Origin: a virus
Taxonomy: Duplodnaviria; Heunggongvirae; Uroviricota; Caudoviricetes
Direction: 5' to 3' (one strand)
Length of the DNA stretch: 64,000 nt
IMG/VR virus record: IMGVR_UViG_3300027733_000047
The translations under genes and the position numbers were made by a program. Shown one piece after another: positions 47,297-61,307 of this stretch. The first letter of the stretch is position 1, and the number at the start of each line of letters is the position of its first letter. The notes below the pieces were generated by a model. The model did no database searches. It was not told the DNA's origin and was given only the letters and a program-made list of their open reading frames with translations.

Positions 47297-48256
47297 TTAT
47301 CTTGGGTTGTATATCATTGAAGTGCCTGAACCAAGTACTGTTGATGGTACGCGTGGTACATCACCATTAGCATTTACCCAACGGATGTATTCAACATAAG
47401 TAGGGCTAAGTTCACGTGTTTTAAGTCTAATAGCCTCGGCCTCACCTGCTGCAGAGATAACTGCTTTGGCTGAGTCACCTTTTGCTGTTGCAATTTTAGT
47501 TTCAGCATCAGCAACAGCTGTAAGTTTATCAAGTTCAGCTTGTTGTGCTTTTTGAATTGCTTCTGTTTTTGCTTTGATAACATCAGCCAATTCTTTTGGT
47601 GGTACGACGCCTGGGTTGATTTGTGATACCGTAAAGTACAAGCTTAATTCTTTATTTAACTCTCTTGTAACATCTTCTTGATACTTTTGTTTGTGATTAA
47701 AGATGCTATCAATCGTGTAGCTATTGCTTGCGTTGGCTAGAGCAATGTTAGTGGCTGTTGACAACCAATTATCTTCTAATGAAGTGAAACTACCACCCTT
47801 TAATAGATTGACATACAAGTCAACCGCTTTTTCTGGTTTCAACGAATAGTTAAAACTAGGGTTAACTTGAATAGGGAAACCACCTCTTGTTGTTACACTG
47901 AACGCTTGATACGATACGTGGTTTTGACGAATTGAATACTCAACTACATCGCTAATCCAAGAGTTGTAGAATACCCAACCTTTAACTGGGATAGCAACAG
48001 GAATACCTTTGCTATTACCGATGCGGTCAATCTTAAGACCAACATTACCAGCATCAATTCTTTGGATGGTAACTGGGTTCATTAGTGATAGTGATAGGGA
48101 TATGAGAATTACCCCTACGAGTTTAGCAACCATCAATGGTTTTAAACTTCGGTCACCGTACCTATCAGGTTCGTTAAAATAATTTTTCGGGTTAAAGATA
48201 CCGAACGTTACGCCTAGTAACGCAATTGCAAGAATAAATGTTAATGTTCCAATCAT
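47297..48256 (-). CDS. SPFH/band-7 (HflK/C-like) membrane protein
   Basis: N-terminal TM; core resembling SPFH fold; C-terminal coiled coil with AEAEAIRLK typical of HflK/C. Confidence 0.55.
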   Translation of the reverse strand: MIGTLTFILAIALLGVTFGIFNPKNYFNEPDRYGDRSLKPLMVAKLVGVILISLSLSLMNPVTIQRIDAGNVGLKIDRIGNSKGIPVAIPVKGWVFYNSWISDVVEYSIRQNHVSYQAFSVTTRGGFPIQVNPSFNYSLKPEKAVDLYVNLLKGGSFTSLEDNWLSTATNIALANASNSYTIDSIFNHKQKYQEDVTRELNKELSLYFTVSQINPGVVPPKELADVIKAKTEAIQKAQQAELDKLTAVADAETKIATAKGDSAKAVISAAGEAEAIRLKTRELSPTYVEYIRWVNANGDVPRVPSTVLGSGTSMIYNPR

Positions 48257-48498
48257 TGTTTTGTGTGTTTTTTAAAGTAAAAAAATAAATGTTTAGTGTG
48301 TAAAATAATGCTTATCAAAATTAATGATAGCAATAGTCCTTCGAATAGGGTGATAAAGATGCTTTGTTGTTGTGACATCAAGCTACCCAACATATCAATG
48401 AATATTGCTGATAGCGCGAGGTGAACAAAGGCCCCTAAAATTTTAAATAATAATTCCATGTGTTTAAGTGTATTAGAATACAAATATACTAAACGCAT
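48253..48498 (-). CDS. small membrane protein
   Basis: Hydrophobic; start overlaps SPFH stop. Confidence 0.5.
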   Translation of the reverse strand: MRLVYLYSNTLKHMELLFKILGAFVHLALSAIFIDMLGSLMSQQQSIFITLFEGLLLSLILISIILHTKHLFFYFKKHTKQ

Positions 48499-48530
48499 TT
48501 TGATTATCCAAATAAAATTTGATTTATTTT

Positions 48531-49901
48531 TTAATTAAATTGGATAGGGCTAGGTGGTGATGGTAATGGATGAACAATTACGGGTTGTTGTATTGTTGCA
48601 CTGCAGAGTGTTCCAACGGTTGTTGCTGTTAGACTAACATTAAATGTTCCAGCACTTGAATAGATGTGAGTTGGGTTTGTAAGTATTGATGTTGTGTTGT
48701 CACCAAAACCCCATTGATATGTTATTGAGTGGTTTGGTATTTGGGGTGTTGTATTCGTGAATACAGTAGTACCACCCAAACAAACTGGTGGTACATTAAA
48801 ACTTGGGTCTGGTGTTGGCTCTATAGTAACTATTATCGTTGTATCTCTTCCGCATCCTAAGTTAGATGATATGTATAAATTTACAGAATAGGTACCAGCT
48901 TGAAATGTATGGATTGGATTTTGTAATGTAGATATTGTACCATCATCAAATGTCCATAAGTAATTAATTGGTGAGTAGCTAGCAGAGCTGGTATTTGTAA
49001 ATTGTACTACCCCAGCACAGTTTGGTGTATATGTGAAGTTTGGAAACCCAGGGGCCATATCTAAAATATAGTACAGCGTTAATTGACACCCTAGAAAGGT
49101 TGTAACTTGACATGTGATTGTATCGTATAATTGTGGGTTGATTGTTGTGCTTTGTGTTGTATCTCCATTCTCCCAAAGATAACTAGCAAAACCACCTAAG
49201 CCATCTATCGTTAATGTTGTATCATTTTCACAATATGTTACGTGGTTAGTTGATTGACCACATTGAACAGCATCTATATAAGCGTAGCCGTAGTGTCCTC
49301 TAAGTCTGCAGTCACCTGTTTCAAATTCAAGTGTCACTGATTGTCCAACATAAGCACTTAAGTCAACTGCCACTTCAGTCCAATCTCTCCAAGCAACCGA
49401 AACAGTATCTGGCGGGTTTGGCCCACAATATTGAAACCCAGCCAAATTTGATGCTGCTGTTACGGTATAGTCAGTACAAGGTATAACGGTGCCGTTTGCT
49501 AATCTAACTCTAGATTGAAATCTAGGTTGGTCTGCTACCAAGTGGTTTGGGTCTTGGAATACCACAGCATATGCGTATCTAATGATTGTTGTTGCTGGTG
49601 TTACTGTAAATTGATAATAAAGTGCTTCTGCTTGAGCACCTACTCTATTATTTCCGAGTCTAGCTGAGTATGTACCTTGGTAAACTGTTCTTAATCCGCC
49701 ACATGTGTTTGGGTCAGTACCTTGTGTCATTATTGTTTGTCTGTTTGCTCCAAAACCATTTGTTGGTAATACGATTGGGCAGCATGTGCCTAGTCTGGCT
49801 GACCAACCAGTAAAGTTACCAAGTTCAAAATCAGTATTACCACATTGCGAATATGTTGCAACGGAAATGAATAATGATATAATAAATAAAACGTTTTTCA
49901 T
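48531..49901 (-). CDS. secreted protein with C-terminal PKD repeats
   Basis: Signal peptide MKNVLFIISLFISVATYSQ; two PKD-like units (YLWTFDDGT...NPIHTFQAGTYSVNL; YQWGFGDNT...NPTHIYSSAGTFNVSL); GC-richer than the phage background. Confidence 0.65.
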   Translation of the reverse strand: MKNVLFIISLFISVATYSQCGNTDFELGNFTGWSARLGTCCPIVLPTNGFGANRQTIMTQGTDPNTCGGLRTVYQGTYSARLGNNRVGAQAEALYYQFTVTPATTIIRYAYAVVFQDPNHLVADQPRFQSRVRLANGTVIPCTDYTVTAASNLAGFQYCGPNPPDTVSVAWRDWTEVAVDLSAYVGQSVTLEFETGDCRLRGHYGYAYIDAVQCGQSTNHVTYCENDTTLTIDGLGGFASYLWENGDTTQSTTINPQLYDTITCQVTTFLGCQLTLYYILDMAPGFPNFTYTPNCAGVVQFTNTSSASYSPINYLWTFDDGTISTLQNPIHTFQAGTYSVNLYISSNLGCGRDTTIIVTIEPTPDPSFNVPPVCLGGTTVFTNTTPQIPNHSITYQWGFGDNTTSILTNPTHIYSSAGTFNVSLTATTVGTLCSATIQQPVIVHPLPSPPSPIQFN

Positions 49902-49907
49902 AATTTA

Positions 49908-50105
49908 TTAATAACGAGGAGATGAAAGTCTTAGGGGGTCAATTGTTCTTGTTTCCCTTCTATCTAACCTACGTATTTGTCTTTCGTACTTTCTAGTATT
50001 AGTTTCAAATTTATGTCTTGGGTTTGCCGCAGCATATGGTGACATATATGTAGTACAGCCATTTGAAATGGCAATAATAAAAATTAAAATAAATATTTTT
50101 TTCAT
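49908..50105 (-). CDS. small lipoprotein
   Basis: MKKIFILIFIIAISNGC lipobox. Confidence 0.5.
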   Translation of the reverse strand: MKKIFILIFIIAISNGCTTYMSPYAAANPRHKFETNTRKYERQIRRLDRRETRTIDPLRLSSPRY

Positions 50106-50662
50106 CGTATTAAAATTAAATTTCCTTTTTTAAAACCTGTTTTACCGTCAATTCCTTTCCACCAACATTGAAAAACAAAATTAAAGATTCCTTGTTGTGC
50201 ACCTTTATATATTCCATTCCATTTATCACCCAATTTATTTGTTTGATAAACCATCTCCCCGTATCTATTATATACCTGCCAACGAATTTCGGTTATTTTA
50301 AACGGAATTGGTGACCAAGCGTCATTAAGCCCATCTCCATTAGGTGTAAATGCGTTAGGAAAAAATATTGCCGATTCTGGACATTTTACAACCTTTACCC
50401 GATATATTCTAGTTGGGTTGCCGCATTCATCTTTATAATAGACTCTTATTAGATAATATCCTGTATCTCTCCAAGTTATTCTAACATTTGAATTTGTTGA
50501 TATTGTATCGCTATTAAGTGTCCATAACCAACCACCACTACTTGTTGATGCATTTGCCCAATAGTTAAAAGTATTCCTAACGTTTGGACATAGTTCAATC
50601 TCTTGCTGAGCTTTTACCGACAGGCTCACCGTAATTAATAATATAGATATGATATATCTCAT
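50102..50662 (-). CDS. secreted protein with T9SS type-B C-terminal sorting domain (CHU_C / gliding-motility-associated CTD)
   Basis: Signal peptide; C-terminus FFPNAFTPNGDGLNDAW...VYNRYGEMVYQT...WNGIYKG...GIFNFVF...GNLILIR matches the TIGR04131-type signature (FTPNGDGINDxF ... IFNRWG..VF ... WdGtykG ... GvYvY ... GtvtLiR). Confidence 0.75.
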   Translation of the reverse strand: MRYIISILLITVSLSVKAQQEIELCPNVRNTFNYWANASTSSGGWLWTLNSDTISTNSNVRITWRDTGYYLIRVYYKDECGNPTRIYRVKVVKCPESAIFFPNAFTPNGDGLNDAWSPIPFKITEIRWQVYNRYGEMVYQTNKLGDKWNGIYKGAQQGIFNFVFQCWWKGIDGKTGFKKGNLILIR

Positions 50663-51207
50663 TAATCATGTTGTATTGGGCTTATTGTTGGTAATGGATT
50701 TACAACCACAGGATTGGTAACGCTAAACGTACAACCACCTAGGCTATATGTATATGTTACGTTTGATGTACCTACACCTGCTGTTGTTGGGCAGAATTGG
50801 TTACCAGTTACACCATTTCCAGACCAGATACCGCCATCAGGTGAGCCAACTAAGGTCACACAAGGTGCGTTAACACAGAACGGTCCAGATTGAAATGTTG
50901 GTGTTATGTTTAGCACAAACACATTTAAAAGGACTGGTGGGCCTACGCAACCAAATTCATTGGTTGGGAAAACGGTCACAGCATTTGTTATTAGGCCAGC
51001 GTTTGCTGTACCCCAATCAACGGTGATTATGTGTGTTCCTTGGCCTGAGGTAATGATACCTGGGCTGGCTACGGTCCAAGTATATGTATTATTTGGTACG
51101 TTTACAACCTGATATGTAGAGCTATTTGAACGATAACAAACAGTATCTGTTTGTGCTTTAACCAAAAAAGGTGTAAAAAATAGGAGGATAAAGAGTAACT
51201 TTTTCAT
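50662..51207 (-). CDS. secreted Ig-like/Cys-rich protein
   Basis: Signal peptide MKKLLFILLFFTPFLVKAQ; ends PLPTISPIQHD, similar to the PKD protein C-terminus PLPSPPSPIQFN. Confidence 0.55.
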   Translation of the reverse strand: MKKLLFILLFFTPFLVKAQTDTVCYRSNSSTYQVVNVPNNTYTWTVASPGIITSGQGTHIITVDWGTANAGLITNAVTVFPTNEFGCVGPPVLLNVFVLNITPTFQSGPFCVNAPCVTLVGSPDGGIWSGNGVTGNQFCPTTAGVGTSNVTYTYSLGGCTFSVTNPVVVNPLPTISPIQHD

Positions 51208-51257
51208 TGGGATTAGGGTTTACTATAAATATTTTATTAAGCAACAAAAGTACCGAA

Positions 51258-51983
51258 TTATATTGTAATTATTTTTAAATTATCATCCCCATCTAAAATT
51301 ATAGCTGTCCTATTTTCAACCCAGTCCCCAGAGTTAAGATAATGGTCATTGTTGATGACCAAATCTGAGGGTTGGTGTATATGTCCGCATATTACACCAT
51401 TGCAATCTTTTTTGTGTGCCATCTTTATTGCGGCATTCTCAAAGTCATTTATATAATTGGTAGCTTGTTTAACACTTGCTTTAATTTTTTGGGAAATTGA
51501 CTGATATGGAAGTTTTCTCCATGCTCTGTATCGATTATACCATCTGTTTAACCATAGGGCCATATCGTATCCAACTGAACCAATCTTTGCTAACCATTTA
51601 TATTTGCTAATAAAAACATCTATTACATCACCGTGGAATATATAATATTTTTTATCTTTAACATTCAGGATATAGTCCTCAACAATCATTATGTTTCCAA
51701 AACTAGAACCAATGAATTCAGCTATGAATTCGTCGTGATTACCTCTAATCCAAACTACTTTTATCTTGTTTGATAGCTTTAATATCTTGGATATAACCAT
51801 CGTATGTTTCTTTTTCCATTTTGAGCCTCTATTTAACGCCCAACCATCAATGATATCACCATTTAGAATTAATAATTCAGTTGGATTATTGTCCAGAAAT
51901 TCAATAAAGTCTTTGGCTTTAGAGTCTTTGGTCCCAAGATGTAAATCAGATACGATTATAGCTTTGGATTTCATATTCCACAA
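51258..51983 (-). CDS. LpxH-family metallophosphoesterase (UDP-2,3-diacylglucosamine hydrolase-like)
   Basis: SDLHLG...NGDIIDGW...RGNHDEF...FHGDVID...GHIHQP...NSGDW: calcineurin-like motifs in LpxH order. Confidence 0.6.
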   Translation of the reverse strand: MWNMKSKAIIVSDLHLGTKDSKAKDFIEFLDNNPTELLILNGDIIDGWALNRGSKWKKKHTMVISKILKLSNKIKVVWIRGNHDEFIAEFIGSSFGNIMIVEDYILNVKDKKYYIFHGDVIDVFISKYKWLAKIGSVGYDMALWLNRWYNRYRAWRKLPYQSISQKIKASVKQATNYINDFENAAIKMAHKKDCNGVICGHIHQPSDLVINNDHYLNSGDWVENRTAIILDGDDNLKIITI

Positions 51984-52059
51984 AATAGTTTTGTTAGAAT
52001 TATTAAAACGGCTGCTGTTGTTACAACAATAAACTCAAATTTGATATCAACTTTCTTTT

Positions 52060-52758
52060 TCATCGCCAATAATTAAAATCTTTTTTAAAAAACTCGTCGT
52101 TATTTCTATTCCACCAGCACATAACCATTAGTTTAATCATATACCATAAACCTTTTTCCTCAAATCTTCTAGAAGGAGTATGAACAAATAGATTCGAAAT
52201 CTTAAACCTTTTAGTGTTAATTTTTGAGCTAATGTGGTAGTCTTCTGCAATTTTATCCTCATTATTAAATCCTCCAATTTTATTAAATGCATCGGTTTTA
52301 AACATCATAAACCCACCCAATGCGAATGGGGTTGTTTTAGAACTAAACCATTGTATAGTATTAAATATTTTGTAAACCCAATCAAATTTACCGTCAAATG
52401 TTTTAAATTTACAAGTCAGCAAATCATAGTCATTTTCAACCATTTCTTTTAAACATTTAACAATTAATTCATTATCGTATATGTGTATGTCAGCATCAAG
52501 AAATAAAACATAGGGTGTTTTTACCAGTTTGGCACCGTTGTTTCTAGCCACGGATGGTAGGCCACCATCAATTATTGTTACTTGCGAACTATATTTTTTT
52601 TGATATTTTTTTAGTAGTATGGTGCTGATTTCATCGTTTGATGAATCCGCAATAATTACTTTAAACTTTTCAGTTTGTTGTACAATAAAAATGAGGGTGT
52701 CTATTACTAAACGACCCTCATTTTTACTAGGTATTACTATGGTTATATCTTTATTCAT
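52060..52758 (-). CDS. family-2 glycosyltransferase
   Basis: ITIVIPSKNE N-terminus and LFLDADIHI (DxD) motif. Confidence 0.6.
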   Translation of the reverse strand: MNKDITIVIPSKNEGRLVIDTLIFIVQQTEKFKVIIADSSNDEISTILLKKYQKKYSSQVTIIDGGLPSVARNNGAKLVKTPYVLFLDADIHIYDNELIVKCLKEMVENDYDLLTCKFKTFDGKFDWVYKIFNTIQWFSSKTTPFALGGFMMFKTDAFNKIGGFNNEDKIAEDYHISSKINTKRFKISNLFVHTPSRRFEEKGLWYMIKLMVMCWWNRNNDEFFKKDFNYWR

Positions 52759-52800
52759 ACATATAAATATTGATATTTTTATATAAATTTTTAAAAAATG

Positions 52801-53154
52801 TTAATAACAAACTGTACCAATAAGATTATAGTTAGTTGTTATTTCATCCCCAATATTAATATCGATTGACGCAACAGTAGTTAAAGTATCTGGTTCAATT
52901 GTGTTTGGGTTATCGCTATGATTCATAAATCTATCATTATCTAATGAACATTTCCAAACATCATCTAAAAAATAACAATAGTGTTTAATATATTCTTTTT
53001 GTAGTTGTGGTAACTGTTCGTATTCTTGTTCAGTAAATTTTTTTGTGAAAATTGATTCTTTAAATATTACAGTTCCTTTAGGGATAAATTCATCGGCAAA
53101 TAGTCCGATACCATTAATCGCGCTTTCTTTTAACTTTGTTTTTACTCTTAACAT
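52801..53154 (-). CDS. SET-domain protein (putative protein lysine methyltransferase)
   Basis: 117 aa with GIGLFADEFIPKGTVI (GxG), RFMNHSDNPN (NHSCxPN-like) and GDEITTNY (ELxFDY-like) in SET order. Confidence 0.6.
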   Translation of the reverse strand: MLRVKTKLKESAINGIGLFADEFIPKGTVIFKESIFTKKFTEQEYEQLPQLQKEYIKHYCYFLDDVWKCSLDNDRFMNHSDNPNTIEPDTLTTVASIDINIGDEITTNYNLIGTVCY

Positions 53155-53513
53155 AATTTTTTAATATTGTGTGGTTTTGGTCTACCTTCATCATCTAATA
53201 ATACAAATACTATTTTATCTATCTTGATTATTGTTTCTTTGGTTGTCTTGCATCTAACGTCACACGCTAGAGTAATAGAAGTAGTACCTATGCTGACTAG
53301 TTCGGTACCAAACTCTACTATGTCTCCTTGCTTAGCCGTCTTAACAAAATTGACTTCACTCATTGCTTTGGTTACGATGTTAGGTGAACCTAGCTGACAT
53401 ATAGCAAAGATAGCAGCCTCTTCATCAATCCATTCTAATACCCTTCCCCCGAAGAGTGTACCTCTTGAGTTTAGGTCACCTGGTTTTACTAGTTTTCTTG
53501 TTCTGTATTTCAT
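53148..53513 (-). CDS. hotdog-fold acyl-CoA thioesterase
   Basis: LNSRGTLFGGRVLEWIDEEAAIFA resembles the 4HBT/YbgC acyl-CoA hydrolase core. Confidence 0.55.
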   Translation of the reverse strand: MKYRTRKLVKPGDLNSRGTLFGGRVLEWIDEEAAIFAICQLGSPNIVTKAMSEVNFVKTAKQGDIVEFGTELVSIGTTSITLACDVRCKTTKETIIKIDKIVFVLLDDEGRPKPHNIKKLC

Positions 53514-58290: not shown

Positions 58291-58632
58291 TTAATTTTTA
58301 TATTCTACATATGTTATTTTAATTCCTAAGTCTTTTGCGTAAGCTATTTCTTCGGCTACGCCCTTAGATTTGTCCCAACCTTCCATCATGTAAACAATCA
58401 TTTCATCACATCTATTTAAGAATGTCAGACAAAAGTTTTCCCAAAAAGGCCAATCGGTTGGCATGTCAGGTTGAAAGTTTACTGCGGTATGTCCGTATAG
58501 TATTGGGCTAAAAGCTACAACGCCATTGTTGATAAGTTCAGCTGTATACTTGGAAACCTTTTGATAGTTTTCTTCTCTAACATTGTCATCAGGATGACTA
58601 TATGGAGATGAAACAAAGATTAGTTTTCTCAC
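58291..58632 (-). CDS. DUF4406 / nucleoside 2-deoxyribosyltransferase-like protein
   Basis: IFVSSPYS... ...CDEMIVYMMEGWDKSKGVAEEIAYAKDLG pattern. Confidence 0.5.
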   Translation of the reverse strand: MRKLIFVSSPYSHPDDNVREENYQKVSKYTAELINNGVVAFSPILYGHTAVNFQPDMPTDWPFWENFCLTFLNRCDEMIVYMMEGWDKSKGVAEEIAYAKDLGIKITYVEYKN

Positions 58633-59408
58633 TTCAAACGATTTTTAATTTCAGTTAATGTTGTTTGGTTTTCAAAGTTACCATCTAGGTAAAGTGTTTT
58701 CAATTGACCTTTGGTTTCTGTTTCCCAAGTTACTTTATCGAATAGTTTTAATTCACCATCGTCATCATTTTTACCAACGTACAAAAGTCCTGTAGCTGAT
58801 TTCTTCATACCATCATCTGTAATTGGGTCTTTAAAGATTTCACGACCTTCAAAATTAACCTCAACATATGTTGCTTTCATTGCAAACCCGAATGTATCGC
58901 GAGTGTTGAATTGGTAAGTGAATGAACCAACACCCAACACGATATTTGTGCTTGCAAATCCTTTTGCTTCTAATCTAGAACAGATTTCTTCTGCTCTGTC
59001 GATTGTGATGCTGTCACCATAGATTGCACCGATGTGTGAATCTAGGACCTTGTAACCTTGTTCGTTAATGGTTCCACCGAATACATCCCAAAGCAATTCA
59101 ATAACTCCTTTGTAAGATGGGTCTTCGTCATCAACTAAACTTACCATTTTAGAACGGGTATTATATCCGCAAACAATATCAACAGGGTCGCCTGAATCAG
59201 GACGTATTACCAATTTACCATCACGAGCTAGGATTTCTTCTTTGAGAATAGGTAAATACTCTGTACACATTCTCCAGAGGTCAAATGTATCACTTACCAT
59301 ACTAAGTATTCCTGTAGGATATTTTGCTAATAACCCTCTAATACCGTTTAATTCATCAGTAACTGTTTTTGTTACAGTTCTTTTTCTAGTTTCAATAACT
59401 TTTTTCAT
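58629..59408 (-). CDS. nicotinamide phosphoribosyltransferase-family protein, C-terminal half (split gene)
   Basis: KLVIRPDSGDPVDIV, IVLGVGSFTYQ, EIFKDPITD align with the NAMPT C-terminal half (LIIRPDSGNPLD, IAFGSGGGLLQ, NVFKDPVAD). Confidence 0.75.
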   Translation of the reverse strand: MKKVIETRKRTVTKTVTDELNGIRGLLAKYPTGILSMVSDTFDLWRMCTEYLPILKEEILARDGKLVIRPDSGDPVDIVCGYNTRSKMVSLVDDEDPSYKGVIELLWDVFGGTINEQGYKVLDSHIGAIYGDSITIDRAEEICSRLEAKGFASTNIVLGVGSFTYQFNTRDTFGFAMKATYVEVNFEGREIFKDPITDDGMKKSATGLLYVGKNDDDGELKLFDKVTWETETKGQLKTLYLDGNFENQTTLTEIKNRLK

Positions 59409-60476
59409 TATTTAAGTTTTAATTATACTTTTATTTATTCCTTTCTAAAAAATCCATCACTTCAATTTCTTTTGGAACATCTATATTTTTGAACTGTTCT
59501 TTGAACTTTTCAATTAGATGGTCAGCAATTTCCATTGATTCTACCGTAAATTTTATTCTTGTAATATCATCTGGATAATTCTCAAAATTTTCATCTTCGT
59601 ATTTTAAATAATATACTTTCATTGTTTAGGTTGTTTAAGTTTAGAATACAAATATACGAACAATATTTGAAATAACAAAATTAATTTTAAAGGTTTGTAT
59701 TAATTTAATACATTTTTTAGTTTTTTTATGTCTTTTGTGTAGGTAGTAGATATTTATTAGTATGAACCACGAACAAATATACAATAAAATCATTAATAAC
59801 GCAAAATCTCAAATAAGGTCTAAAAAAGATTCTTATTTTGAAAGACATCACATTATCCCTAAAACCGCTGGTGGTGATAATTCAAAAGAAAATATCGTTC
59901 TACTAACAGCTAAAGAACACTTTGTTTGCCACCGTCTATTATGTTTCATATACCCTGAATCAAAATCCCTACGTTTTGCTTTTTGGGCGATGTGTAACCA
60001 ATTAAAAGGCGATGTTAAACGAGATTATAAAGTAACATCAAGAACATACGAAGATGCAAAACTAAAATTCAAAGAAGTTAATTCATCTTTACATAAAGGT
60101 AAAAAACTTTCAGACGAACATCTGTTAAAAATTACCAAAAGAATGTTATCTGATGATAATCCAATGAAAGGTAGAAAAGGTTCTGATAATCCATTATATA
60201 AAAAAGAACGAAGTGAATACACCAAATCTAAAATTTCAAATACCAAACTCTTAAACCCAACAAAAAATTGTAATTTTAAAGGCTTATATGTTACACCTTT
60301 AGGTAAGTTTTATACTTCGGCAGAAGCATCTAAAATACATAAATTAGATAGGTCTGTCATAATTGAAAGATGTAAAGTAAAGTCCGATAAAGTTATTACA
60401 AAAAAAGGTGTATTCTTTTCTAAAGATTTAACAATTAATGATATTGGTAAAACATATAAAGAGGTTGGATGGGATT
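59409..60476. mobile_element. homing-endonuclease-bearing insertion splitting the NAMPT-family gene
   Basis: About 1.07 kb separates the N- and C-terminal NAMPT halves; it contains the HNH ORF and one small ORF. Confidence 0.55.
59431..59622 (-). CDS. hypothetical protein inside the insertion that splits the NAMPT gene
   Basis: 63-aa ORF with promoter variant 59640-59690. Confidence 0.45.
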   Translation of the reverse strand: MKVYYLKYEDENFENYPDDITRIKFTVESMEIADHLIEKFKEQFKNIDVPKEIEVMDFLERNK

Positions 60477-60499
60477 TTATATCTCAACCTCAGAAATAA
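59762..60499 (+). CDS. HNH homing endonuclease
   Basis: FERHHIIPKTAGGDNSKENIVLLTAKEHFVCH HNH motif; plus strand between the two NAMPT halves. Confidence 0.7.
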   Translation: MNHEQIYNKIINNAKSQIRSKKDSYFERHHIIPKTAGGDNSKENIVLLTAKEHFVCHRLLCFIYPESKSLRFAFWAMCNQLKGDVKRDYKVTSRTYEDAKLKFKEVNSSLHKGKKLSDEHLLKITKRMLSDDNPMKGRKGSDNPLYKKERSEYTKSKISNTKLLNPTKNCNFKGLYVTPLGKFYTSAEASKIHKLDRSVIIERCKVKSDKVITKKGVFFSKDLTINDIGKTYKEVGWDFISQPQK

Positions 60500-61307
60500 T
60501 GTTTCCATTATCATCATAAGTTATCTCTACTTTATATTCTTCTTCAACTTCAACCTTTTTAAACTCGGTTATAGAGCACATTACCGAGTGTTCGGTTGCG
60601 TTTACGCTACCACCAACGAATCCTGTTTCACCATAATACTTTCTAGCACCGCCGATAGCTGGCAATGAATCGGTACCTGAGAATGATGTCAAGTGACCTA
60701 ACCCTGAGCTTATTGTTGCATCGATTGAATCCAATCCTCTCATTGAGAAATCATGTCCTTGCCAGTCGATAAACCATGCTCTTTCAGCATCAGTTTTTTC
60801 TTGCCACTTGGTTAATACCTTACGATATTGGTGAGCGATGGTAGCAGATGTTGTTGGTTTCCACAAAAGGTTTGAAATGATTGTTTCAAGGTAATTTGTT
60901 ATCCAATAGAAATCAGGATGTGTGTTGTGGATTGTAAGAATAGGAATTCTCATTGGTACTAGTGTTCCTTCTTCTAGTATCTTTACATGGATAGGTAAGT
61001 AACCCAAGTCATGTAGTTTTTCAAAGTGTGTAACATCGTAATCGGTACCTAAGTACATTGATAGTTCGCGTTTAATTTCACCACAAACTTCAGATTTCAT
61101 TCTATTAAAGAAATCATCTCTGAATGCTTCGTTGATTTGTTTCATTACCATTTGTTGACCAAATGATACAACTTTATCACAACCCTTTGGAGCGTATTTG
61201 TTGCTACGTGGTGTAAAGTTTGAATAAACTAATGTTGTACCTTGTGGATACATTTGATGGTGTGCTGTTTTATAACCATCGGTAAGTAAAAGTGGATTGA
61301 TTTTCAT
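60477..61307 (-). CDS. nicotinamide phosphoribosyltransferase-family protein, N-terminal half (split gene)
   Basis: INPLLLTDGYKTAHHQMYPQGT ... FSGTDSLPAIGGARKYYG ... ATEHSVM align with the NAMPT N-terminal half (NILLATDSYKVTHYKQYP ... FKGTDTVAGLALIKKYYG ... AAEHSTI); the C-terminal roughly 30 aa do not align. Confidence 0.75.
   Translation of the reverse strand: MKINPLLLTDGYKTAHHQMYPQGTTLVYSNFTPRSNKYAPKGCDKVVSFGQQMVMKQINEAFRDDFFNRMKSEVCGEIKRELSMYLGTDYDVTHFEKLHDLGYLPIHVKILEEGTLVPMRIPILTIHNTHPDFYWITNYLETIISNLLWKPTTSATIAHQYRKVLTKWQEKTDAERAWFIDWQGHDFSMRGLDSIDATISSGLGHLTSFSGTDSLPAIGGARKYYGETGFVGGSVNATEHSVMCSITEFKKVEVEEEYKVEITYDDNGNIISEVEI

Follow-up and report, generated by a model that had tools for sequence, protein, structure and literature searches.

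A conserved four-gene phage cassette that combines a small type-B T9SS sorting-domain protein with C-terminally tagged proteins bearing signal peptides

Why would a phage carry a run of genes that look as if they belong to the envelope of its host? We addressed this question in a 64,000-nt stretch of viral DNA (the window). [quoted passage not shown] The window does belong to a phage genome: PHROG and Pfam searches returned phage-type matches (GP88, DUF932, T4_Y16D, a split NAMPT and homing endonucleases), and relatives are present in IMG/VR. Its host is almost certainly a member of the Bacteroidota with a T9SS, because all cellular homologues found were from that group and the window holds 39 Bacteroidota-type promoter elements.

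Extent and neighbours of the cassette

The conserved phage unit is a four-gene cassette at 48531–51207, smaller than the span first proposed. It encodes a PKD_6/Ig protein (client 1), a protein with a T9SS C-terminal domain (CTD; the carrier), a 65-aa lipoprotein-like product and a CBM-like plus PKD protein (client 2) (Table 1). The cassette is retained, in several gene orders, on contigs of uncultivated viruses that reach 322 kb, and its trio of genes co-occurs in two gene orders and as a PKD_6::CTD fusion (47 IMG/VR loci). Its dN/dS values are 0.07–0.15 against the closest relative, and purifying selection has kept the cassette in many lineages of jumbo phages. The −7-like box ahead of it is a weak candidate for a promoter element, as the motif is common (262 copies in the window) and no −33 TTTG lies at the proper spacing.

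Table 1. Features of the cassette and its surroundings in the window
Feature	Position	Strand	Remarks
SPFH/Band_7 protein	47297–48256	−	outside cassette; Band_7 64 bits; phrog_200 E 1.7e-46
81-aa membrane ORF	48253–48498	−	outside cassette; overlaps SPFH gene
Client 2, 456 aa	48531–49901	−	signal peptide (..YS|QC), CBM/MAM-like jelly-roll, small Ig-like domain, two PKD domains, tag
Client 2 C-terminal tag	48534–48569	−	PLPSPPSPIQFN-COOH; translation
Client 2 CBM-like (lectin-like) N-terminal domain	49257–49844	−	residues 20–215
65-aa basic lipoprotein-like ORF (..ISNG|C)	49908–50105	−	lipobox-like site read from sequence
Carrier, 186 aa	50102–50662	−	signal peptide, small PKD-like beta-sandwich, type-B T9SS CTD
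Carrier type-B CTD	50105–50377	−	residues 96–186; translation; FTPNGDGLND, YNRYGE, KWNG, FNFVF, KGNLILIR
Client 1, 181 aa	50662–51207	−	signal peptide (..LVKA|Q), PKD_6, second Ig-like domain, tag
Client 1 C-terminal tag	50665–50700	−	NPLPTISPIQHD-COOH; translation
Bacteroidota −7-like box	51245–51252	−	TACTTTTG; lone; 38 nt upstream of cassette's first start codon
LpxH-like metallophosphoesterase	51258–51983	−	outside cassette, after GT2
GT2 glycosyltransferase	52060–52758	−	outside cassette; 58 bits

Profile scores bore out the SPFH/band-7 and GT2 calls made for the flanking genes. The LpxH call stood only in part: the nearest solved structures were all LpxH (E ~1e-7), but scores of 68 and 46.6 bits fell short of the cut-offs of two LpxH equivalog models (134 and 190, respectively). 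We then took the viral loci other than those on contigs of the window itself and counted these genes in the 10 kb on either side of the cassette. An SPFH gene was near the cassette in one other locus only (L010, 2 kb away), and the order GT2 then phosphoesterase was repeated once (L024; 45% identity, at a distance of 2.5 kb and on the other strand). The GT2 and LpxH-like genes are a separate small pair, and the SPFH, LpxH-like, GT2, SET and thioesterase genes are mere neighbours of the cassette; these counts speak against a single module over 47297–53513.

The proposal of recent capture had rested on GC content. Total GC was indeed raised in the PKD gene (0.387, z +1.4) and the PKD_6 gene (0.408, z +2.0), but not in the CTD gene (0.333, z 0.07), and GC3 of the three genes (0.232, 0.280 and 0.225) was at or below the window mean of 0.284 (sd 0.063). 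The excess in the PKD and PKD_6 genes sits in codon position 2 and is therefore an effect of amino-acid composition. Best identity to any cellular genome was 44%, identity between phages ranged from 41 to 100%, and dS was saturated with dN/dS at about 0.1, all of which argues against recent capture. Lysogenic conversion fared no better, with no integrase among the five window ORFs of at least 298 aa and relatives that are jumbo-sized contigs. A recent host-derived module that remodels lipid A and glycans and exports T9SS cargo in lysogenic conversion is thus very improbable. All of its named domains are present, the L010 and L024 arrangements place some of them near a cassette, and the PHROG for GtrB-like O-antigen conversion matched GT2 weakly (E 1.4e-8); however, the named genes lie away from the cassette in other viral loci. 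The ideas of recent capture and of one module are largely refuted.

The carrier and its partner proteins

The carrier was correctly read as a signal-peptide protein with a type-B CTD. Its CTD exceeded both curated cut-offs in CHU_C/TIGR04131 profile searches, and a structure search with the predicted model returned a fold like that of CTDs solved within the SprA translocon. The motif columns were invariant or near-invariant in a 44-sequence alignment, and KGNLILIR stops at the final residue of the protein. Five CTD motifs of this kind are each needed for secretion (PMC12618676). The reading of a genuine type-B T9SS signal in the phage is supported. Carriers range from 111 to 195 aa, and in some phages the 111-aa carrier is the CTD alone, with no passenger at all.

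The 186-aa protein is the only cassette product with a complete type-B CTD, and all four have cleavable Bacteroidota-style N-termini of Sec or lipoprotein type. These features argue against the PKD and Ig-like proteins being Hoc-like decorations of the capsid or tail whose signal peptides are incidental, as does the setting of the cassette: its neighbours are small genes of early or auxiliary type, and the 64-kb window contains no structural genes. We regard that explanation as scarcely credible.

Client 1, first described as Ig-like, has a PKD_6 domain (42.8 bits, Pfam) and belongs to a family of 480 members of 180–190 aa. Its residues 23–175 align to residues 406–555 of a 732-aa megaphage protein (LR745206.1, locus L135, 2324–4522) at 51% identity (E 6e-31), and the carrier half is 30% identical to the same protein. 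The two genes are collinear with residues 406–555 and 559–712 of this one ORF, and in one subclade the PKD_6 domain is covalently joined, as passenger, to the same CTD. Judged by these alignments, the PKD_6 and CTD genes are a fission pair derived from one conventional cargo protein, with client 1 as its N-terminal half. The client 1 stop codon overlaps the carrier start codon by 1 nt. A CTD gene directly follows a PKD_6-type gene in all 12 informative viral cases and in 35 of 45 metagenomic cases, 31 of them with a 1-nt ATGA overlap. Of six exception loci inspected, five have the carrier about 0.1–1 kb downstream; at the sixth, L171, no carrier was seen near the PKD_6-type gene.

The 65-aa ORF, whose start overlaps the carrier stop by 4 nt, had no family match in profile searches (Pfam and PHROG among them). 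It is kept at the equivalent position in L005 (95%) and in L006 and L008 (52%), with a dN/dS of 0.07, and was not detected in phages with gene order B.

Client 2 is the most conserved cassette gene (dN/dS 0.09; 1102 homologues), and its family is found widely in metagenomes from lakes and the sea. The PKD-repeat call was confirmed by two PKD domains (PKD_4, 81.8 bits, Pfam), and the AF2 model had a pLDDT of 90. Approximately 62 of 65 checked cellular homologue ORFs (540–2260 aa) end in a type-B CTD. A PorP/SprF gene lies 12 nt downstream of the closest one, which comes from a Flavobacterium MAG (L083). Client 2 is thus a CTD-less derivative of Bacteroidota type-B surface cargo. Among CTD-less genes of its type (PKD456), 21 of 30 lie no more than 3 kb from a small CTD gene, relative to 0 of 5 for those that retain their own CTD. 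For several members of an SVFTN-tailed subgroup (L041, L046), no small CTD gene was found even where the sequence continues downstream for as much as 10 kb.

The best structural match of the N-terminal domain of client 2 was a CBM that binds porphyran and is part of a T9SS protein. This match, together with cellular homologues that are large type-B surface proteins accompanied by PorP/SprF and the wide occurrence of the family in lakes and seas, would fit an extra polysaccharide-binding adhesin that keeps the infected cell attached to the surfaces of algae or particles, which are dense in hosts, an ecological gain and not a defensive one. However, CBM-like folds are generic, with MAM and GH16-type structures matching at similar Z, and the proposal depends on the same co-export step as our preferred reading below. 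We consider it decidedly unlikely.

The shared tag and a possible export route

Both clients end in the same kind of C-terminal tag, with the consensus I-x-[H/F/Y]-[N/D]-COOH on CTD-less proteins. The resemblance between the two tails had been remarked on before, and it is real and far stronger than was then apparent. In the client 1 family, P-5 is found in 118/120, I-4 in 120/120, H-2 in 115/120 and N/D-1 in 120/120 sequences; in the client 2 family, I-4 is found in 104/105, H-2 in 82/105 (F, Y or S in most of the others) and N/D-1 in 102/105. The tag is thus near-invariant over 225 homologues of both families. Tag-type ends occur on 2 of 183 window ORFs, namely the two clients, and on 1 of 1312 ORFs of bacterial loci. 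In the AF2 model of client 2, the tag is extended and of low confidence (last block pLDDT 69). Three multi-member families and single proteins of 484 and 384 aa carry the tag, and tagged genes of several unrelated families lie in clusters with a single small CTD gene; for the tagged 384-aa ORF of L022, no small CTD gene was found within 2.5 kb. Tails of different families were more similar within one genome than between genomes, a small effect that is inflated by clade structure.

We propose, with a probability of roughly 45%, that the cassette is a split cargo set that uses the host T9SS, with clients docking to the carrier by their tags and the cell surface remodelled as a result. After Sec export, the host T9SS would recognise the carrier, which would cross the outer membrane via SprA and be retained at the surface by a PorP/SprF-type shuttle of the host. 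Neither the window nor the 47 viral loci contained a PorP/SprF gene, which means that the phage CTD has to rely on a shuttle from the host; PorP-like proteins keep type-B CTD proteins bound at the surface (PMC9143113). The tagged clients would attach to the carrier non-covalently, most simply to its CTD, because the carrier of some phages is the CTD alone. Folded client–carrier complexes might then be exported together, and the infected cell would show a phage-encoded array of glycan-binding and Ig-like domains. The T9SS does transport folded proteins (PMC9251779); we found no precedent in the searched literature for T9SS co-export of a non-covalent partner. Alternatively, the tag could be read by a host component instead of the carrier. 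The loci at which no small CTD gene was found nearby (L041, L046, L171 and L022) also weigh against our reading.

Such an array might mask glycan or adhesin receptors or occupy the shuttles for the receptor adhesins of the host, and so would limit superinfection and the loss of progeny onto infected cells. Receptors of flavobacterial phages are thought to be T9SS-secreted adhesins (PMC9804748), and superinfection exclusion or receptor masking by the cassette is possible. We infer both the docking by the tag and the biological effect. If correct, the cassette suggests a new route by which a phage can display proteins of its own at the surface of the cell that it has infected.

The carrier might instead be a decoy that saturates the PorP/SprF shuttles or the translocon of the host and halts the delivery of type-B adhesins. 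In that case nothing would be co-exported, and the CTD-less proteins would remain periplasmic, with a dominant-negative or glycan-binding accessory role. The outcome would be superinfection exclusion and gliding arrest. The need for a host shuttle and the 111-aa variants without passenger would suit a blocker, shuttle–CTD pairs are specific and limiting (PMC12618676), and mutants defective in the T9SS or in gliding show broad phage resistance (PMC9804748). However, a blocker leaves unexplained why several unrelated CTD-less secreted proteins share a near-invariant tag, why CTD-less genes are translationally coupled to the CTD gene and why one subclade has a covalent PKD_6 passenger on the same CTD. 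Client 2 being the most conserved cassette gene would also be odd for an accessory. We therefore consider a blocker unlikely and favour a split cargo set.

Comparison with known systems

Cellular type-B cargo and shuttle pairs include SprB/SprF and Fjoh_3952/Fjoh_3951 of Flavobacterium johnsoniae and PG1035/PorP of Porphyromonas gingivalis (PMC9143113, PMC12618676). Like cellular cargo, the phage set has a signal peptide, a C-terminal CHU_C/TIGR04131 domain with conserved motifs, and CBM-like, Ig and PKD beta-sandwich passengers; the cellular pairing of cargo with a following PorP/SprF gene is present at the closest cellular homologue. Unlike cellular cargo, which runs to hundreds to thousands of residues, the phage carrier is tiny, passenger and CTD are separate polypeptides that each have their own signal peptide, the CTD-less parts bear a tag that is nearly absent from the cellular loci examined, and the phage brings no shuttle gene.

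Unsplit versions also exist in phages: the 732-aa LR745206.1 protein and the CTD-bearing PKD456-type proteins of 880–1347 aa in IMG/VR (L011–L014, L029–L030, L033–L035). They share homologous domains in equal order (52% identity to client 2) and are single polypeptides with a covalent CTD, no C-terminal tag and no adjacent small CTD gene. In concept, the cassette resembles hitchhiker (piggyback) export by the Tat pathway, in which a folded protein without a signal is carried along by a partner that has one, and Llp of phage T5, a small exclusion lipoprotein of the envelope that alters receptor availability. Neither is related to the cassette in sequence, and the secretion machinery is not the same; we found no report of hitchhiking via T9SS in the searched literature.

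Another parallel among phages is the 'Cryophage'. Its proteins with a T9SS sorting domain presumably hijack the machinery of the host, and roles in superinfection or competition were likewise raised for them (Bellas et al. 2020, Nat Commun 11:4403; PMC7468147). Those CTDs are type A, covalently attached to enzymes (endoglucanase, GH39, PA14) and located in hypervariable islands of one phage (PMC7468147), whereas ours is type B, with cargo and signal split and the cassette conserved across many jumbo-phage lineages. Small phage type-B CTD proteins are not new as such, since several are already deposited under the automatic name 'Gliding motility-associated C-terminal domain': UniProt A0A6J5NJX2 (187 aa) and A0A6J5L8Z9 (199 aa) from uncultured Caudovirales, A0A7S9STS8 from Virus NIOZ-UU157, and the 108-aa marine-phage protein A0A8D9CF28. 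They are of the size class and fold of our carrier (Foldseek E 5e-15 to 9e-6). Our literature search turned up no description of these proteins, of their tagged partner genes or of the split arrangement. The new points are the fission pair, the cellular homologues with a covalent CTD, and the common tag on genes that cluster with one CTD gene.

Gene content of the window

Judged by its gene content, the window is phage DNA. PHROG and Pfam searches gave phage-type matches (phrog_21518 at E 1e-101, GP88, DUF932, T4_Y16D and WDGH), and the region of interest sits in a run of about 127 small ORFs, almost all on the minus strand. The window encodes GIY-YIG and HNH homing endonucleases, and its thymidylate synthase is closest to those of Flavobacterium phage immuto (52%) and of 635-642-kb megaphages. 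A tRNA scan of the window found no tRNA genes. The nicotinamide phosphoribosyltransferase gene is split, with 60477-61307 matching positions 12-272 of the phrog_448 profile and 58629-59408 matching positions 262-494; an HNH/NUMOD endonuclease ORF lies between the halves on the opposite strand (59762-60499).

[quoted passage not shown]

Domain-bearing genes of the region and their profile support
Feature	Position	Strand	Support
SPFH/Band_7	47297-48256	-	PF01145, 64 bits (gathering 23.6); phrog_200, E 1.7e-46
Two PKD domains (456-aa protein)	48531-49901	-	profile match
PKD-like domain, then type-B CTD (186-aa protein)	50102-50662	-	PF13585 CHU_C, 52.6 bits (cut-off 27); TIGR04131, 48.6 bits (cut-off 35)
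PKD_6 (181-aa protein)	50662-51207	-	profile match
Calcineurin-like phosphoesterase	51258-51983	-	profile match
GT2	52060-52758	-	PF00535, 58.1 bits (gathering 23.3)
SET	52801-53154		117 aa, 55.6 bits
Hotdog (4HBT) thioesterase	53148-53513		

The unit that persists is smaller than the region in the table. Diverged relatives on a 285-kb contig (L005) and a 107-kb contig (L006) keep the PKD_6 protein, the CTD protein, a lipoprotein of 65-72 aa and the 456-aa protein while the neighbours change, and we refer to these four genes as the cassette. A scan of IMG/VR returned 47 viral loci, the longest contig measuring 322 kb, and lake-metagenome contigs encode an identical 186-aa protein flanked by the same genes. 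Related loci were viewed over ±3 to ±10 kb around each gene. The earlier note had treated 47297-53513 as one module. This does not hold among the viral loci, where an SPFH gene lies near the cassette once (L010) and the GT2 and phosphoesterase genes once (L024, on the opposite strand). Among 50,697 GenBank phage records, we found no near-identical DNA to 47297-53513 and no tblastn match to the 456-aa protein; a search of the same records with the CTD protein matched only two metagenomic megaphages. The paper on 'Moraphage' (PMC12619734) does not mention the cassette genes.

Several neighbours have associations of their own. The SPFH gene and an upstream 81-aa hydrophobic ORF (together 47297-48498) overlap by 4 nt in a layout resembling SPFH/NfeD-type membrane pairs. 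The SET gene, whose product is a minimal SET-domain protein, overlaps the stop of the upstream thioesterase gene, and in another viral locus, L022, a SET ORF with 43% identity is located some 4 kb upstream of the cassette. The GT2 gene and, after it, the LpxH-like phosphoesterase gene form their own conserved pair, found at 51258-52758 in the window and at 5650-7384 in L024 (45% identity, with a 107-aa membrane ORF between them). LpxH models and structures align with the phosphoesterase over its full length (structures, E ~1e-7). Its scores fall far short of the LpxH equivalog cut-offs (NF003743, 68.1 bits vs 134; TIGR01854, 46.6 vs 190), and we file it as an LpxH-like metallophosphoesterase. 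The GT2 protein had no equivalog-level match, its best being TIGR04283 at 66.5 bits vs 182. In fusion-type phages (L006 12245-15252, also L009 and L010), the cassette is followed by genes for a 332-aa secreted protein, a 448-aa PD40+OmpA protein whose domains are arranged as in PorE, and a YkuD L,D-transpeptidase. These genes resemble another envelope or peptidoglycan set encoded by the phage.

An intergenic element of about 36 nt, TAAATTTGGTAG...(20 nt)...TATATTTG, is present in 39 copies on the minus strand, at 662-45058 and 59649-59683. Bacteroidota sigma-A promoters share its geometry (-33 TTTG, ~20 nt, -7 TAnnTTTG), and TAnnTTTG occurs 262 times in the window against 112 ± 10 expected. 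Since no copy lies between 45.1 and 59.6 kb, the cassette falls in a stretch without this promoter type. Scans of 46.8-54.2 kb for sigma-70 promoters (29 vs 35.6 in shuffled sequence) and intrinsic terminators (3 vs 3.7) were not above chance and yield no operon boundaries.

Age and origin of the cassette

The PKD and CTD genes had been described as GC-richer than their surroundings, which was taken to suggest recent capture from the host. Total GC is indeed raised in the PKD gene (0.387) and the PKD_6 gene (0.408); it is not raised in the CTD gene (0.333). The excess lies at codon position 2 (0.41-0.49) and is thus due to Gly/Pro/Thr/Cys-rich protein composition. GC3 is not elevated (0.232, 0.280 and 0.225 vs a window mean of 0.284, sd 0.063). 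In a scan of one genome per species across bacteria and archaea, the 456-aa protein had more than 588 cellular relatives, all in Bacteroidota and none above 44% identity; its phage relatives span 41-100%. In comparison with the nearest diverged relative, dS has reached saturation, and dN/dS ranges from 0.07 to 0.15 in those genes that allowed its calculation. Recent capture is not supported, and the cassette genes are old, selected residents of the phage lineage. A lysogenic-conversion role, also suggested earlier, fares no better: there is no integrase among the five window ORFs of at least 298 aa (64 kb of genome), GC3 is not foreign and the cassette is conserved across lineages. We rejected decayed pseudogene fragments because dN/dS is about 0.1, the signal peptides are intact and there are hundreds of full-length homologues. 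The 65-aa lipoprotein gene (49908-50105) differs from its cassette neighbours, with 94% protein identity and dS of 0.36 relative to L005 10558-10755 while the flanking cassette genes have dS >1.4. This suggests either recent exchange of this small gene or extra constraint on its DNA.

The 181-aa protein and the 186-aa protein, here called the carrier, are the two halves of one conventional cargo protein. In the megaphage LR745206.1, a single 732-aa signal-peptide protein spans both halves: residues 406-555 align with the 181-aa PKD_6 protein (51%, E 6e-31) and residues 559-712 with the carrier, including its CTD (30%, E 8e-19). The downstream half has gained its own signal peptide. For the same reason, we rejected the idea that the PKD_6 and CTD genes are fused by readthrough or frameshifting. 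The 456-aa protein also has relatives with an attached CTD. A type-B CTD ends about 62/65 of its full-length cellular homologues (540-2260 aa), and unsplit versions of 880-1347 aa with 52% identity occur on other phage contigs. The closest cellular homologue, from a Flavobacterium MAG, has a CHU_C domain (81 bits), and a PorP/SprF gene (286 bits) begins 12 nt behind it, a textbook cargo-shuttle pair.

The 456-aa protein matches PDB entries by sequence in its PKD domains only. In the predicted model, residues 20-215 form a beta-jelly-roll matching characterised carbohydrate-binding modules (CBMs), and MAM and GH16-type folds score similarly. These residues gave no sequence-level family match, and we describe them as a CBM-like domain and putative glycan binder.

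The carrier and the tagged proteins

The carrier begins with an N-terminal Sec signal peptide, MRYIISILLITVSLSVKA|QQ, judged by inspection, with a predicted helix at residues 2-15; the signal peptides and lipobox of the cassette products were all assigned by eye. Its CTD is at the extreme C-terminus, with ...KGNLILIR ending at residue 186. The predicted structure (pLDDT 87) is a small beta-sandwich plus the CTD, and the CTD beta-sandwich matches those of substrates whose structures were solved within the F. johnsoniae translocon. Across 44 aligned sequences, little or no variation is seen in FTPNGDGLND, NRYGE, KW(N/D)G, a hydrophobic strand and G..(L/V)IR. Five CTD motifs are each needed for secretion of type-B substrates (PMC12618676), and on our own reading the conserved carrier motifs would correspond to motifs A-E of that study. 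In UniProt, automatic annotation has given the name 'gliding motility-associated C-terminal domain' to proteins of 187-199 aa from uncultured Caudovirales and to one of 108 aa from a marine phage. The smallest carriers in our set are 111 aa and consist of a signal peptide and CTD only (L015 and L016, on 185-294-kb contigs, and L028). On the 294-kb phage contig, L015 9427-14097 encodes in a row the CTD-only carrier, a client of 383 aa that bears the tag, a secreted non-specific nuclease and a secreted S8 subtilase of 760 aa.

A PorP/SprF-like shuttle gene beside a type-B cargo gene is frequent, not universal, and orphan substrates exist. At E <= 1, an HMM built from four Pfam-verified sequences found no PorP/SprF genes in the window or the 47 viral loci. 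The phage CTD would therefore need a shuttle supplied by the host, and the carrier would be an 'orphan' type-B substrate relying on it. The exclusively Bacteroidota cellular homologues and the Bacteroidota-type promoters of the window point indirectly to a host with a T9SS. Two other phage loci encode signal-peptide proteins of 261 aa (L018 13180-13965) and 265 aa (L026 13672-14469) with 54% mutual identity and outer-membrane-barrel-like ends (...LQILF and ...LAVIF). The second lies directly upstream of a gene for a 602-aa CHU_C protein. Neither has a Pfam match, PorP/SprF similarity or a homologue in the window.

Both CTD-less proteins of the window close with a Pro-rich stretch followed by PIQHD or PIQFN. 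This ending is strongly conserved in the 456-aa and 181-aa families, respectively, with Ile at -4 in 104/105 and 120/120 sequences, His at -2 in 82/105 (the rest mostly F, Y or S) and 115/120 (the rest F or Y), and Asn or Asp at -1 in 102/105 and 120/120. The resulting tag, I-x-[HFY]-[ND] at the C-terminus, ends 2/183 window ORFs and 1/1312 ORFs from bacterial loci. It ends 31/1372 ORFs in viral loci, all but one of them secreted proteins of the cassette neighbourhood. Three multi-member families carry it: the PKD_6 type (including proteins of 794-927 aa), the 456 type and a family of 106-215 aa (n=30), as do single proteins of 484 and 384 aa. Members of the 106-215-aa family begin ...SQCNG.QSFTLTPP, end ...G(A/S/P)I(S/N)HN, and on many lake and marine contigs their genes directly precede those of the PKD_6 type (L188 1874-2455, L208 2340-2921 and about 28 more); the window has none. 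Some genomes (L155, L158) have three tagged genes and one carrier. In a MAFFT alignment, the tag of the 456-aa family lies opposite the first CTD residues of unsplit homologues. The tag of the 181-aa protein corresponds to the inter-domain linker of the megaphage 732-aa protein. The AF2 model shows the tag as extended and of lower confidence. Tails of different families agree at 3.57 of 6 positions within genomes vs 3.24 between genomes (0/5000 permutations), a slight difference that is inflated by shared locus ancestry.

Tagged genes and carrier genes are linked. The order seen in the window recurs, a second order has the 456-type gene first, then PKD_6, then CTD, and in a fusion form a single polypeptide contains both the PKD_6 domain and the CTD. 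The PKD_6 gene runs directly into the CTD gene in every one of the 12 viral loci that are informative (gaps of -8 to +2 nt) and in 35/45 metagenomic loci; in 31 of the latter, the two genes overlap by 1 nt (ATGA) as in the window. Among six exception loci listed, the carrier is found about 0.1-1 kb downstream in five, behind another tagged gene in three; at the sixth, L171, no carrier was seen near the PKD_6-type gene. A small CTD gene lies within 3 kb of 21/30 distinct CTD-less 456-type proteins, with several of the remainder on truncated contigs, and of 0/5 456-type proteins that retain their own CTD; the chance of this split is about 0.006 (hypergeometric estimate). Part of the SVFTN-tailed subgroup showed no carrier nearby, and in L022 there was none within 2.5 kb of the 384-aa ORF that bears the tag.

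A proposed display route and known systems

Type-B CTD proteins require PorP/SprF-type shuttles and stay bound to them at the cell surface (PMC9143113, PMC12618676), and the T9SS moves folded proteins (PMC9251779). We propose that the 186-aa protein is an orphan type-B substrate serving as a carrier, a step that is well supported. Tagged CTD-less proteins would then dock on the carrier and be displayed together with it; we infer this step from the shared tag, the linkage of the genes, their origin by fission, the naturally occurring fusion and the existence of CTD-only carriers. By analogy, the surface of the infected cell may be changed as a result. The main rival explanation is a decoy, in which the carrier blocks host shuttles; this accounts for the carrier but leaves the tag unexplained. 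The most far-reaching interpretation is that this is the first example of hitchhiker secretion via the T9SS, in which a minimal, reusable type-B CTD carrier is joined by unrelated folded proteins docking through the tag as a portable sorting signal, and that it evolved in large Bacteroidota phages by cargo-gene fission. This remains tentative, and we give it a probability of roughly 0.3.

Substrate recognition and final destination are a still open part of type-B T9SS biology. A signal split from its passenger, down to a 111-aa CTD-only protein, is a compact natural test of the CTD alone. If the reading is right, proteins would be sent to the surface by only four C-terminal residues, which would amount to a sorting principle not seen before and could serve as a display tool in Bacteroidota. 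Abundant uncultivated freshwater and marine jumbo phages would also be investing in rebuilding the infected-cell surface through the T9SS. Flavobacterial phage receptors are thought to be T9SS-secreted adhesins, and T9SS and gliding mutants are broadly resistant (PMC9804748); the same system that makes the presumed receptors would be the one used for the rebuilding.

We found no paper on type-B CTDs in phages, split cargo or hitchhiking through the T9SS. A single paper describes T9SS cargo encoded by a phage, 'Cryophage', and terms it a unique occurrence (PMC7468147). Its CTDs are type A and sit on enzymes, whereas the CTD in the window is type B.
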